This document shows, in pieces, positions 37,934 through 40,956 of a stretch of DNA of 64,000 bases (position 1 is the stretch's first letter; every line of letters starts with the position of its first letter). Source of the DNA: an uncultured Bacteriovoracaceae bacterium (GTDB taxonomy: Bacteria > Desulfobacterota > Desulfomonilia > UBA1062). The notes under the pieces are model-generated. The model saw only the letters and a list, made by a program, of their open reading frames with translations. It had not been told where the DNA came from and did no database searches. The stretch is from contig CAZNGL010000001.1 in the NCBI GenBank assembly GCA_964572405.1, positions 11,553 to 75,552 on the forward strand, in the 5' to 3' direction. A program made the translations under genes and the position numbers.

Positions 37934-39421
37934 ATGAAGGTGCTGAGCGGCGGGAAGATGGCAGGAATCAGAAAGGCCTTCCTCCAGGCAGGCTATACGA
38001 GAACAGGCATCCTCGAGAGGCTCGGAGCCGGCGACTTTCCCTCGCTGAGAAGCAGCGACATCCCGATCCTCCTCCACCGCACCGCCAGCGGGGACGCCCT
38101 GGATACCCTGATCCGCCTGTTCCTCGTGGAGGCGCCGTGCGACAAGGACGCCGTGAGCGAGGCGGCAGCCCCCCTGCCCACCCCTGACTGGATCGAGGCG
38201 GGCCTCGTCATCGTCGACGGGGATCGGGTGCGACCGGCAGTGAAGATCCTGCCGTACGGCGATTTCCTCCTCGCCTTCGACCTCATCGGCGCGTACGGCA
38301 GGGAGGGCTCCACAGACTTCGTCATGGGCATTGGGGCCAGCACGATCACCCTGGCCAACCTCACGATCCGCAGTCCTTCGCGCCTCACCCTGGACCTGGG
38401 CACCGGGTGCGGTTTCCAGGCACTGTGTGCAGCACGGCACAGCGAAAAGATCGTGGCCACGGACATCAACGCGCGGGCCCTCGCCTATGCCCGGTTCAAC
38501 GCGGCGCTCAACGATGCCGCCGCCGTGGAGTTCCGCCAGGGCGACCTCTTCGAGCCGGTAAGCGGCCTCGCCTTTGACCTCATCGTCTGCAACCCGCCCT
38601 TTGTCATCTCGCCGGAAACCCTCTTCACCTACTGCGACGGCGGCATGGAGGGCGACGCGCTGTGCAGGAGGATCGTCCGGGAGGCGCCCTCCTTCCTCGC
38701 AGAGGGCGGGTTCTGCCAGATCCTGTGCAACTGGGCCGAATACGACGACCGTGACTGGGGAGAGGGACTGAAGAACTGGGTCGAGGGCAGCGGCTGCGAT
38801 GCCTGGGTCATGCGGTCCCAGTCGCGCGACATCGTCACGTACGCCTCCACCTGGATACGCCAGAAATCCCGGGACCCGCAGGGGATCCCTCAGGAACGCT
38901 TCGAGCAGTGGATGCGCTACTACGACCACCTGGGCATCTCCTCGGTCGGCTCCGGCATCATCACCATGCGACGCCGGACGGATGGCCATCCCTGGTACCG
39001 AGCGGACGACGCCCCGAAAAAGATGCTGGGCCCCTGCGGGGATGACATCCTCAGGGGCTTTGCCCTGCGGGACGTCCTGGAGTCCGCGAGCGACGCCGAC
39101 CTGCTCGAGACCCGGCTTATCCTCTCCCCGGATGCCAGGCTCGAGCGGATCTGCGCGCCCGCCGAGGAAGGCTGGAAGGATACGTCGCTGTCGCTGAGCC
39201 TGGTCTGCGGCCTTCCGTACACCGGCGCCATCGACCCCGTGATGGCAAACTTCCTCATCGCCTGCAACGGCACCAGGACCCTCGGGCAGGTCCTGCAGGA
39301 CAGCGTCCCGGGCATGGACGCCCCTTCCGATGCCGTGATCCAGGCTCTCATGAATATTGTCCGGTCGCTCATGGAGCGGGGGTTCCTCCTGCCCGCAGGA
39401 GGCGGGGAGTGCCGCGGTTAG
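37934..39421 (+). CDS. Large class I SAM-dependent methyltransferase (HemK/PrmC-like MTS domain with NPPF motif) plus a C-terminal domain of unknown function
   Basis: LDLGTGCGFQ (motif I), ATDINARAL, LIVCNPPFV (NPPF catalytic motif). 495-507 aa depending on start (ATG 37934 preferred over the TTG track start). Paralog of the 39430..40956 product. Confidence 0.6.
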   Translation: MKVLSGGKMAGIRKAFLQAGYTRTGILERLGAGDFPSLRSSDIPILLHRTASGDALDTLIRLFLVEAPCDKDAVSEAAAPLPTPDWIEAGLVIVDGDRVRPAVKILPYGDFLLAFDLIGAYGREGSTDFVMGIGASTITLANLTIRSPSRLTLDLGTGCGFQALCAARHSEKIVATDINARALAYARFNAALNDAAAVEFRQGDLFEPVSGLAFDLIVCNPPFVISPETLFTYCDGGMEGDALCRRIVREAPSFLAEGGFCQILCNWAEYDDRDWGEGLKNWVEGSGCDAWVMRSQSRDIVTYASTWIRQKSRDPQGIPQERFEQWMRYYDHLGISSVGSGIITMRRRTDGHPWYRADDAPKKMLGPCGDDILRGFALRDVLESASDADLLETRLILSPDARLERICAPAEEGWKDTSLSLSLVCGLPYTGAIDPVMANFLIACNGTRTLGQVLQDSVPGMDAPSDAVIQALMNIVRSLMERGFLLPAGGGECRG

Positions 39422-39429
39422 CGTCCGTC

Positions 39430-40956
39430 TCACGCCCCTGCACCCGTTGTCCCGCCCTCATCATGCACCACCGTCAGGAATCCCTTCTGCATGAGCATGC
39501 ACATGACCTCGACACACGGCTTCACGATCCTGTCCGGGTCCATGTGCAGGCCGACTGCGAGGTCTCGTATCAGCTCGTCGAGGGTCCGCTCCCCGTTGCA
39601 GCCCGCAAGCATGGTGGCCATGAGCTTGTCCACGTTCCCGGTGAACGGGAAACCCTTGACCTGCCTGATCCGGGCATTGCTGACCTTCCAGATCCCCTCC
39701 TCGGCCTGCAGGGTCTGCACGAGCTCGTGGTCCGGGGTGAGGAGGAACCGCAGGGAGAGCACGTCCATGCCCTTCTGGAGGATGTCCTGGGCGGCGAAGA
39801 TCCGCAGGATCTGGTCGCTGCAGGGCCCCTGGGCACGGTACTCGGGTGCGCGGTCCGTGAACACCCAGTTCCCTGTGCAGGTCCTGCGCCTGATGATCAC
39901 TGCGCCGAAGCTTATCTTGCCGATGCCGAGGTCTTCGTAGTACGCAAGCCACCGGTCCAGGGTCTCGGGGAAGCGTTCCTGCTCCACGGCGGCATCCCGC
40001 GCGAGCCATGACGATGCATAGGCGATGGGGTCCTCGGTCTCCGAGCAGACCAGCATGATGTCGCACCCGCTCGAATCGAGCCAGGACAGCGGCCGTGCGG
40101 CCCAGTCGCTCTCGTCCCTGTGGTGCCAGTTGACCAGCACCGTGCAGAACCCCCCCTCGGCGAGGAGCCCGGGGGCTCCCCGTATGATGCGCTCGCAGAG
40201 CGTATCGCCCTCCATGCCGCTGTCGCGGTACTGGTAGCGCCCCTTGGGCGATATGACAAAGGGCGGGTTGCAGACGATGAGGTCAAAGGCGCGCCCCCTG
40301 ACCGGGTCGTAGAGGCTTCCCTGGACGAACTCGATGTTGGCCCTGCCGCTGAGTCGGGCGTTCAGGGCCCCGAAGTTCAGGGCCCGGGCATTGATGTCCG
40401 TTGCCGTGACACGCTCGGCGTGGCAGGATGCCCTGATGGACTGGAACCCCGCGCCTGCGCCCAGATCGAGGACGTTCCGGACCTTTTTCCTCACGGTCAT
40501 GTTGGCCAGGGCGATGGTGGATGGACCGACGCCGAGCACGAAATCGTCCGGCGCCTCTTCACCCATGACCTGGGGCAGGAAATCGCAGAGGAGGTAGAGG
40601 TCCTCGTACGCCAGCAGTGCCGCCTCGGCCCGGATGCCACCGCCCTCTTTCCTGAGGAGGCCCACTGCCAGGAGATCCTCGAGCACAACCGATTCCAGTG
40701 CCTCCCTGACCTCATCCTCTGGCATGACTTTGCCGAGAATGAAGAGCCTGACCAGGGTGTTGTAGGGCGAGGGCTTCTCCGTGCGTCTGAGGATTGCATA
40801 GACGTCGGCCTTTCTGGCCAGCGGCCCCTCCGGTGCATCGAGGTTCATGGTCTCGGCGAGGGCGCTCTGGACGTAGCCCCTTTCCACGAGGGTCTTCCGC
40901 AGGAGGTCCACGTCGAGGGGATGGTCGAGGTTGAAGGGGGTGTGCTGTTCGTTCAT
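39430..40956 (-). CDS. Paralogous large class I SAM-dependent methyltransferase (NPPF motif), last gene of the tssBC-fusion operon
   Basis: LDLGAGAGFQ, ATDINARAL, LIVCNPPFV. Collinear with the plus-strand paralog over the full length; their 3' ends are 8 bp apart (convergent). Confidence 0.6.
   Translation of the reverse strand: MNEQHTPFNLDHPLDVDLLRKTLVERGYVQSALAETMNLDAPEGPLARKADVYAILRRTEKPSPYNTLVRLFILGKVMPEDEVREALESVVLEDLLAVGLLRKEGGGIRAEAALLAYEDLYLLCDFLPQVMGEEAPDDFVLGVGPSTIALANMTVRKKVRNVLDLGAGAGFQSIRASCHAERVTATDINARALNFGALNARLSGRANIEFVQGSLYDPVRGRAFDLIVCNPPFVISPKGRYQYRDSGMEGDTLCERIIRGAPGLLAEGGFCTVLVNWHHRDESDWAARPLSWLDSSGCDIMLVCSETEDPIAYASSWLARDAAVEQERFPETLDRWLAYYEDLGIGKISFGAVIIRRRTCTGNWVFTDRAPEYRAQGPCSDQILRIFAAQDILQKGMDVLSLRFLLTPDHELVQTLQAEEGIWKVSNARIRQVKGFPFTGNVDKLMATMLAGCNGERTLDELIRDLAVGLHMDPDRIVKPCVEVMCMLMQKGFLTVVHDEGGTTGAGA

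Follow-up and report, generated by a model that had tools for sequence, protein, structure and literature searches.

A convergent methyltransferase gene pair in a T6SS island

The window, i.e., the whole 64,000-nucleotide stretch of DNA analysed here, comes from an uncultured Bacteriovoracaceae bacterium and contains a T6SS island in which two methyltransferase genes, MT1 and MT2, lie tail to tail. MT1 (37934..39421, + strand) is assigned by its ORF, Pfam matches and motifs as a 495-aa SAM-dependent N-methyltransferase with the architecture DUF7059-MTS-DUF7782, and it belongs to what we call the MT1-type clade. MT2 (39430..40956, - strand; ORF and Pfam) is a 508-aa paralogue with the same architecture and belongs to the MT2-type clade. 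Within the island, the + strand carries MT1 alone, and MT2 is oriented as the T6SS core genes are. The start of MT1 could be TTG 37898, ATG 37934 or ATG 37958; the rest of the gene coordinates are certain. The MT1 stop (TAG) ends at 39421 and the MT2 stop (TGA, minus strand) occupies 39430-39432, and ORFs and sequence thus agree with the original prediction of 8 bp between convergent stops (spacer cgtccgtc, 39422..39429). No terminator-like hairpin is predicted near this junction, and a terminator and promoter scan around it gave no signal above shuffled expectation. An 82-bp divergent intergenic region, delimited by ORF coordinates, separates MT1 from a DUF2169 gene (37852..37933); it is the presumed MT1 promoter region, and the promoter scan found no sigma-70-like site within it.

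The two proteins are true paralogues, sharing 41% identity and 60% positives over 482 aa (BLASTP, E 3e-129), which is far beyond chance. The identical blocks from which their relationship was first proposed are all present in both: LDLGTGCGFQ/LDLGAGAGFQ, ATDINARAL, DLIVCNPPFVISP, EGGFCQILCNW/EGGFCTVLVNW and YASTWI/YASSWL.

Pfam-annotated neighbours place the pair between a VgrG module and the T6SS core, as had been claimed. One flank consists of VgrG (32585-34738), a DUF2169 protein, a 290-aa protein and a second DUF2169 protein. The other consists of a 103-aa protein, a DUF5086 protein, a TssB-TssC fusion and ClpV, beyond which lie TssG/F/E/Hcp/C/B/A/TagJ/M/K; FHA-domain genes are also found in the island (Pfam). 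The TssB-TssC fusion paralogue (41758..43263, - strand) is 501 aa long and has no TssC C-terminal domain (VipA and VipB but no VipB_2 in Pfam), an assignment that also follows from alignments to the window's own TssB and TssC. The cluster's Hcp tube protein (50320..50817, - strand) matches Pfam T6SS_HCP at E 1.7e-49. Just upstream of MT2, an ORF encodes the 103-aa Cys-rich protein (40985..41296, - strand), which has a CxxC zinc-ribbon-like N-terminus and a weak HTH match (HTH_31, E 0.0018, below the gathering score). Between it and the fusion gene lies the DUF5086 gene (41297..41740, - strand; Pfam E 1.5e-25), whose product has a signal-peptide-like N-terminus. We rejected these two proteins as conserved partners or substrates of the methyltransferases because their homologues are confined to close relatives (loci L001-L005).

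Catalytic class, fold relatives and the C-terminal domain

Both proteins match DUF7059, MTS and DUF7782 in the right order and above the Pfam gathering cut-offs (27, 23 and 27 bits, respectively), with scores of 54, 61.8 and 48.6 bits for MT1 and 48.5, 60.7 and 38.8 bits for MT2. The family with this architecture comprises 1601 50%-identity clusters at E<=1e-30. MT1 carries LDLGTGCG and CNPPFVISP, and LDLGxGxG, TD/VD and NPPFVISP are kept throughout the family, in the MT1 and MT2 clades as well as in the other members. The pair therefore has the marks of class I SAM amide/amine N-methyltransferases, i.e., motif I (GxGxG), an acidic residue following beta-2, and motif IV, (D/N)PP(Y/F). Together, the NPPF motif and the fold support an assignment to the amide/amine N-methyltransferases of the HemK/AerE/GenN lineage, in keeping with the amino-group class originally read from the motif.

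The (D/N)PP(Y/F) motif is also found among nucleic-acid N-methyltransferases. It is conceivable that MT1 and MT2 are housekeeping N-methyltransferases of the translation apparatus or of nucleic acids (PrmC/PrmB/RsmC-like, or N6-adenine DNA/RNA methylases) that sit in the T6SS island by chance, and weak matches to HemK, PrmB, RsmC and MTQ2 models point in this direction. However, every NCBIfam score is far under its cut-off: MT1 and MT2 score 68.5 and 60.4 bits against PrmC/HemK (TIGR03534, cut-off 199.1; core region only), 49.6 and 47.7 against PrmB (TIGR03533, cut-off 229.7), and 28.8 and 25.6 against RsmC/RlmG-type rRNA guanine-N2 methyltransferases (RsmC model NF007023, cut-off 295). The match to the RsmC structure 2pjd is likewise core-only (E 9e-6). 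We therefore rejected PrmC, PrmB, RsmC and MTQ2 orthology, and the profile search bears out the original view that these are not housekeeping rRNA or release-factor methylases. PrmC/HemK and PrmB do share motif IV, NPP(Y/F), and an MTS-type core with the pair, and are themselves protein methyltransferases that modify Gln-N5 in RF1/RF2 and L3, a side-chain amide-N methylation. MT1 and MT2 differ from them in having another N-terminal domain, an extra ~230-aa C-terminal region, and a family neighbourhood of T6SS and Hcp genes rather than a translation-factor context. The MADS defence protein mad2 also matches over the catalytic core, but only this core (~150-287) aligns, to ~283-417 of the 492 residues of mad2 (PADLOC), so we rejected this assignment; PADLOC gave no match for five other neighbours (the 103-aa, DUF5086, 255-aa and 290-aa proteins and the TssB-TssC fusion). 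No nucleic-acid-binding or target-recognition domain was found in MT1 or MT2 by Pfam or Foldseek. On the question of synteny the picture is mixed: no orthology to RsmC, RlmG or PrmC emerged, but distant Streptomycetaceae members of the family lie in a conserved non-T6SS housekeeping neighbourhood (topA/holB-type) without Hcp. Against a chance location, the T6SS linkage described below (22 of 31 loci) should be far above chance for a ~30-kb cluster in a multi-Mb genome. Altogether, a housekeeping role appears very improbable.

The closest solved structures are natural-product enzymes. An AF2 model of MT2 (pLDDT 88) has GenN (E 5.5e-22, TMt 0.73-0.76) and AerE (E 2.4e-20, TMt 0.71, ~385 columns) as its best Foldseek matches, with alignments of ~370-389 columns across the two, and GenN is also the best sequence match in a profile search (E 1.2e-24, N-terminal subdomain and core). 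GenN (PDB 5TYQ, 5U4T) is the gentamicin 3''-N-methyltransferase of an antibiotic biosynthesis cluster; it differs from MT1 and MT2 in its motif (NSP, not NPPF), in its length (~320 aa) and in having no C-terminal DUF7782/PqqD-like domain. Its substrate is an aminoglycoside, and that the best structural match acts on a small molecule runs counter to the T6SS protein or peptide substrate that we favour below.

AerE/PoyE (proteusin; PDB 7RC2-7RC6) shares the class I SAM fold, with a helical N-terminal subdomain and Rossmann core, and a nearly identical catalytic stretch, CNPPFV. The AerE motif FDLLTCNPPFVAFP corresponds to FDLIVCNPPFVISP in the MT family, and CNPPFV aligns to AerE residues 230-235. 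AerE acts on a peptide, methylating Asn side-chain amides with the involvement of Asn231 and Phe234 of NPPF, and it is leader-independent and has no RRE (PMC9060474). It differs from the pair in being 384 aa long without a PqqD-like C-terminal domain, in sharing only ~19-20% identity with the MTs, and in belonging to a proteusin pathway, where its partners are a radical SAM epimerase and a precursor peptide and there is no T6SS context.

The C-terminal ~180 aa had been described as unassigned, which proved wrong: Pfam assigns the region to DUF7782, and a PqqD/RRE-like part makes up its last ~60 aa. In MT2, the DUF7782 match covers residues 398-495, and the C-terminal 113 aa (residues 396-508; 39433..39771, - strand) end in a PqqD/RRE-like winged helix, as indicated by PqqD profile and fold matches. 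Pfam PqqD (PF05402) is matched by 24/38 family C-termini at E<=1 (best 2.3e-6), and the family profile matches PqqD 3g2b at E 2.2e-4. Structure prediction of the domain (pLDDT 86) recovers the same fold, with TM 0.72 to PqqD 5sxy and 0.70-0.75 to the lasso-peptide RRE TbiB1. MT1 and MT2 alone have no PF05402 match at E<=0.1, and the PqqD homology holds at family and fold level only. Thus, ~60-100 C-terminal aa resemble PqqD-type RREs (PqqD 3G2B/5SXY; TbiB1 5V1V; NisB, MibB, TglI) in profile and fold, with the difference that here a methyltransferase carries the domain, the setting is a T6SS, and no leader peptide partner was found.

It is tempting to conclude from these relatives that the MTs tailor a RiPP-like (AerE/PoyE) or GenN-like product that is made beside the T6SS or delivered by it, the machine itself being unmodified. 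A PqqD-like RRE domain is a hallmark of RiPP enzymes, and one related locus (L006) also has a B12-binding radical SAM/TPR protein and another methyltransferase. However, there is no conserved short precursor-like ORF and no further RiPP enzyme across loci, nor is a proteusin precursor or radical SAM epimerase a conserved neighbour. No radical SAM or NHLP-type precursor lies near MT1 and MT2 in the window, where the neighbours annotated with Pfam comprise T6SS proteins and unknowns only, and the sole small neighbours, the 103-aa and DUF5086 proteins, are those restricted to close relatives. The neighbours that do recur are T6SS structural genes and Hcp, and AerE itself functions without an RRE. 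We consider a natural-product role improbable.

Linkage to T6SS and Hcp genes and the pairing of two clades

T6SS genes lie within 10 kb of an MT in 22/31 species-level diderm loci, which span at least seven phyla; in 9 of the 31 a T6SS gene is within 500 bp, and in another 9 there is none in the flanks. The co-occurrence with T6SS genes proposed as a check on the original prediction is therefore conserved, and the pair shows what defines a T6SS accessory (Tag-type) gene, namely, a linkage to the core genes that is kept between distant taxa. L001 and L005 have the same convergent pair, and an MT2 homologue at 93% identity has the same genomic context. In the Planctomycetota, the pair sits between tssF and tssE, inside the core operon and overlapping the tssE reading frame, and in the Desulfobacterales a family MT directly follows the fusion gene. 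An Hcp-seeded search independently revealed a further T6SS cluster, in which tssK and a divergent member of the family are convergently oriented.

Whenever two family genes are convergent or lie near each other, one is MT1-type and the other MT2-type, indicating that the duplication is ancient; within each type, identity across phyla is 45-50%. The tail-to-tail layout is kept in relatives, with 8 bp or 54 bp between the genes or an 8-bp overlap. Tandem pairs (L029, L053), separated pairs and natural MT-MT fusion proteins of 955-999 aa also occur, so the collision of converging transcripts originally envisaged is not a required feature.

These patterns also bear on the idea that MT1 and/or MT2 are methyltransferase toxins secreted via the VgrG/DUF2169 module, with the paralogue immunity-like or a decoy. 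The VgrG-DUF2169-unknown-DUF2169 module adjoins the pair, a typical cargo position, and in several relatives the MT is within a few kb of VgrG. However, Pfam shows no PAAR, Rhs, MIX, FIX or DUF4150 marker, and the neighbour of each protein is an equal-sized, catalytically intact paralogue. The two clades are old, unlike polymorphic effectors, and neither the Planctomycetota pair inside the core operon nor the Actinomycetota MT-Hcp modules, in whose vicinity no further T6SS gene turned up, fits a cargo gene. From the location in a T6SS island, the original prediction drew either a protein substrate or an effector/immunity-like pair. A T6SS-linked substrate is still the best reading; an effector/immunity-like pair is quite unlikely, since both copies keep all catalytic motifs and belong to two old orthologous clades.

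Two T6SS components recur beside the MTs. In other phyla, the TssB-TssC fusion often directly adjoins an MT, as in L007, L017, L021, L026, L029, L061 and L065. We rejected an obligate link, as an MT was within 10 kb in only 1/4 fusion-seeded loci (flanks covered 8-10 kb in the three MT-less ones). An Hcp gene directly adjoins a family MT in L032, L036, L042, L043, L064, L074 and L098, the MT being divergent from Hcp in L098, and in L091 Hcp is three genes after a double-length MT. In six Actinomycetota/Acidimicrobiales/Dormibacterota loci with direct adjacency, no other T6SS gene was detected in stretches of 7-21 kb. This link is not obligate in Actinomycetota either, given an orphan Hcp (P0269) without an MT within 8 kb. 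No conserved methyl-acceptor Asn/Gln is evident in the aligned Hcp sequences.

A possible methylation of T6SS proteins

The conservation of T6SS linkage across phyla makes a T6SS-related protein or peptide substrate the best reading. We regard it as slightly more probable than not that MT1 and MT2 serve the T6SS as an accessory pair, N-methylating a T6SS protein or peptide, likeliest Hcp, via PqqD-like docking and the NPPF site. The predicted build runs from a GenN/AerE-like N-terminal subdomain and Rossmann core through a beta-rich linker to a PqqD-like (RRE-type) winged helix. The latter may dock a protein substrate by one of its exposed peptide segments or beta-strands. Methylation would then take place at the NPPF site, with SAM as the donor and either the amide nitrogen of an Asn/Gln side chain or an amino group as the acceptor. 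MT1-type and MT2-type proteins may act jointly, either as a heteromer or each on a site of its own. Their substrate would be a T6SS component; Hcp ranks first among the candidates, as partner or substrate, and the TssB-TssC fusion paralogue second. A more specific version is speculative but possible: a heteromeric, RRE-guided MT1/MT2 would methylate Hcp (or the sheath-like TssB-TssC fusion), and the same module would operate with orphan Actinomycetota Hcp that have no canonical T6SS. If this holds, contractile secretion systems would have an unrecognised layer of methylation.

Both T6SS reviews consulted treat phosphorylation by PpkA/PppA/Fha as the central post-translational control (PMC13584744, PMC10482370). 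Neither of them, one on regulation (2023) and one on accessory factors (2026), names a methyltransferase: 'methyl' has 0 occurrences in PMC13584744, and methylation appears in PMC10482370 only as a generic list item. In our literature searches on DUF7059/DUF7782 and T6SS methyltransferases, we found no paper describing a T6SS methyltransferase of this family, and searches on T6SS with PqqD, natural TssB-TssC fusions and actinobacterial Hcp returned nothing relevant. Like PpkA/PppA/Fha threonine phosphorylation and TagF, the MT pair would be a cluster-encoded post-translational T6SS modifier, but one whose chemistry is methylation, in contrast to the phosphorylation of PpkA/PppA/Fha. DUF7059 and DUF7782, which together represent roughly 1600 50%-identity clusters, gain a context and a likely peptide-binding role, and an RRE-type domain would be employed beyond the classical RiPP pathway. 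Found with T6SS clusters in at least seven phyla and with orphan Hcp genes in Actinomycetota, such a pair would constitute a new class of accessory factor.

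A convergent methyltransferase pair in the T6SS island

MT1 (37934-39421, + strand, 495 aa, with alternative starts at 37898 and 37958) and MT2 (39430-40956, - strand, 508 aa) are both real open reading frames. Their facing stop codons are separated by the 8 bp cgtccgtc, and the proteins are 41% identical over 482 aa (BLASTP E value, 3e-129). This confirms the paralogous, convergent arrangement in the original prediction, and each of the sequence blocks quoted there was found. MT1 is the sole plus-strand gene in the island, and the genes around the pair are all on the minus strand. 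One flank carries VgrG (32585-34738), followed by a DUF2169 gene, a gene for a 290-aa protein, and a second DUF2169 gene. The other carries genes for a 103-aa Cys-rich protein, a DUF5086 protein, and a TssB-TssC fusion paralogue (41758-43263), beyond which lie a 255-aa protein, ClpV, TssG, TssF, TssE, and Hcp, and then TssC, TssB, TssA, TagJ, TssM, and TssK. A scan around the MT1/MT2 junction detected neither a terminator nor a promoter signal. It was proposed earlier that convergent transcription of the two genes would collide; we argue that such collision is not essential, because the spacing varies and tandem or fused arrangements occur elsewhere.

The 290-aa protein (35995-36867, - strand) has no Pfam match even at E ≤ 1, and its homologs come from close relatives only. 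It is Pro/Ala-rich near its N terminus and Gly-rich at its C terminus, and it lies between the two DUF2169 genes downstream of VgrG, the position expected of a spike-tip or cargo protein. The 103-aa protein (40985-41296, - strand), with two N-terminal CxxC pairs and a weak Xre-type HTH match (E value, 0.0018), may be a small regulator, judging by its sequence. Its gene adjoins that of the DUF5086 protein (41297-41740, - strand), which has a signal-peptide-like start; these two lineage-specific genes sit between the fusion gene and MT2. The 255-aa protein (43331-44098, - strand), whose gene separates ClpV from the fusion gene, lacks significant Pfam matches; at locus L005 of a close relative, its counterpart carries a faint Peptidase_C58 flag.

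Enzyme class and the C-terminal domain

MT1 and MT2 both contain DUF7059, MTS (PF05175), and DUF7782 in that order, all above Pfam gathering thresholds; the C-terminal region, previously called unassigned, is therefore Pfam DUF7782. NCBIfam scores for MT1 fall below the cut-offs for PrmC (68.5 versus 199.1 bits), PrmB (49.6 versus 229.7 bits), MTQ2 (66.7 versus 87 bits), and RsmC (28.8 versus 295 bits). The assignment to these housekeeping enzymes, which would have refuted the original prediction, therefore fails, and despite these sub-threshold matches we consider housekeeping or nucleic acid methylation by MT1/MT2 very improbable. In a PADLOC scan, the sole match was that of the methyltransferase catalytic core to mad2.

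For the AlphaFold model of MT2 (42 homologs as input; mean pLDDT, 88), the top two PDB enzymes in Foldseek were the gentamicin 3''-N-methyltransferase GenN (E value, 5.5e-22; TM, 0.73-0.76) and the aeronamide N-methyltransferase AerE (E value, 2.4e-20; TM, 0.71), aligned over ∼370-389 columns. AerE methylates the D-Asn side-chain amide in a peptide, and Asn231 and Phe234 of its NPPF motif are functionally important (PMC9060474). Its catalytic stretch, FDLLTCNPPFVAFP, is nearly identical to the one found here, FDLIVCNPPFVISP. The MT1 clade, the MT2 clade, and the rest of the family all preserve motif I, the acidic residue that binds ribose, and NPPFVISP, so both MT1 and MT2 look active.

Pfam PqqD was matched by 24 of the 38 family C-terminal segments when scanned singly (best E value, 2.3e-6), and a profile of these segments retrieved the PqqD structures 3G2B (E value, 2.2e-4) and 5SXY. 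The last 113 residues of MT2, modeled separately (pLDDT, 86), matched PqqD and the leader-peptide-bound lasso-peptide RRE TbiB1 (TM, 0.70-0.75). Further matches were to the RREs of MibB, NisB, MadB, and TglI and to the winged helices at the C termini of the protein lysine methyltransferases Rv2067c and PKMT1/2. On these profile and model matches, MT1 and MT2 thus each join an AerE/GenN-like catalytic half to an RRE-type domain, which binds a peptide segment where its role is known. Altogether, there is good support for placing MT1 and MT2 in an N-methyltransferase class that carries a PqqD-like domain. The same likenesses would fit tailoring of a peptide or metabolite by MT1/MT2, a reading that we find unlikely when set beside the gene neighborhoods described below.

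T6SS linkage and pairing across genomes

In close relatives (93% and 75% identity), the pair is likewise convergent and occupies the same T6SS position, with spacers of 8 bp and 54 bp. In Planctomycetota, one contig has the pair, with an 8-bp overlap, placed between tssF and tssE, and it is the MT1-type gene, not the MT2-type, that is joined to the core operon. In Desulfobacterales, a single methyltransferase gene immediately follows the TssB-TssC fusion gene, and a Syntrophaceae contig has two copies 7 kb apart amid FHA, kinase, PP2C, and DUF2169 genes. Near these two copies, in a T6SS-accessory region (L006, 1622-6985), the stretch between a DUF2169 gene and the FHA/SLT genes encodes a Methyltransf_23 protein, two proteins of unknown function, and a 769-aa protein that combines TPR with a B12-binding radical SAM domain.

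Scanning one genome per species gave at least 594 loci. We retained 80 of these and searched them with the T6SS proteins of the window, using tblastn and iterative HMMs. Counting as T6SS-linked any locus with one or more T6SS genes, ClpV excepted, in flanks of 10 kb or shorter, 22 of 31 non-redundant diderm loci were linked (9/31 within 500 bp), from Thermodesulfobacteriota, Planctomycetota, Verrucomicrobiota, Kiritimatiellae, Nitrospirota, Rokubacteria, and Acidobacteriota. For a cluster of ∼30 kb in a genome of several megabases, we infer a chance proximity of about 1%. An independent, Hcp-seeded search found one more T6SS cluster, in which a divergent family member is convergent with tssK. 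This member, at L093 (228-1727; 25% identity to MT2 over 467 aa, HPPY instead of NPPF) represents a third T6SS-linked clade. Nine diderm loci had no T6SS gene in their flanks and no neighbor common to all. The wider family is not exclusively T6SS-linked, since Streptomycetaceae members sit in conserved topA/holB-type synteny. In Streptomyces and Kitasatospora (L040-L090), this block includes genes for a topoisomerase I-like protein (∼990 aa), a ∼1120-aa protein, and a holB-like product, suggesting that the family member has another role there and is inherited vertically. Overall, synteny makes a T6SS accessory role of MT1/MT2 well supported. That they are instead secreted effectors seems quite unlikely.

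The MT1-type and MT2-type clades are separate in a neighbor-joining tree, and one gene of each type is present in all pairs that are convergent or nearby (L001, L005, L006, and L009/L013). The duplication is therefore older than the spread of these clusters, and neither copy has been lost. Tandem pairs occur in other lineages (L029 and L053), and three 50%-identity representatives are natural double-length fusions of two methyltransferases (955-999 aa). These fusions (P0121 at L091, 8001-10976; P0169; and P0208) each contain two complete DUF7059-MTS-DUF7782 units, and two of the three carry NAPY/NAPF in place of NPPY/NPPF in the N-terminal unit. The recurrence of the two-copy arrangement suggests cooperation between two different subunits, and MT1 and MT2 may act as a heteromer.

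Candidate partners

At six loci in Actinomycetota, Acidimicrobiales, and Dormibacterota (L032, L036, L042, L043, L064, and L074; methyltransferase at ∼10001-11500), the methyltransferase gene immediately adjoins an orphan Hcp homolog that shares 33-44% identity with Hcp of the window. The stretches fetched, of up to 21 kb, showed no further T6SS genes; two of the contigs that carry these loci are 1.7 Mb and 0.47 Mb long. The presence of Hcp in monoderm-type phyla is unexpected in its own right. At L091, Hcp lies three genes downstream of P0121 in an otherwise non-T6SS neighborhood, and a collagen-repeat protein and a Tat-signal protein are likewise encoded just downstream of P0121; at L098, a fusion-seeded T6SS locus, the methyltransferase gene is divergent from Hcp. 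Hcp is the most recurrent single neighbor, and this recurrent adjacency makes it the best candidate partner. The aligned Hcp sequences had no obvious conserved acceptor residue, and one orphan Hcp had no family methyltransferase within 8 kb.

The TssB-TssC fusion (501 aa), encoded in addition to normal TssB and TssC, combines VipA and VipB in one protein: residues 27-145 align to TssB and residues 179-492 to TssC residues 49-374, without the TssC C-terminal VipB_2 domain. It directly adjoins a methyltransferase gene in seven distant loci. The link is positional, not obligate, because the fusion family is large (1938 database matches at E ≤ 1e-20, canonical TssC included; both VipA and VipB in all but one of the best 120) and only one of four fusion-seeded loci has a methyltransferase gene within 10 kb. 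The fusion is usually encoded between ClpV and VgrG; no paper on a natural TssB-TssC fusion was found. Hcp would be the first candidate for the methylation substrate and the fusion the second.

The literature searched makes no mention of DUF7059 or DUF7782 and offered nothing relevant on T6SS with PqqD or on actinobacterial Hcp. In an August 2026 review of T6SS accessory factors, "methyl" occurs nowhere (PMC13584744), and a 2023 review of T6SS regulation treats methylation in generic terms only (PMC10482370). The only T6SS-cluster methyltransferase found in the literature is Re87 of Rhizobium etli, a small, unrelated O-methyltransferase fragment. MT1 and MT2 form a real and conserved methyltransferase module that is associated with T6SS and had not been described.
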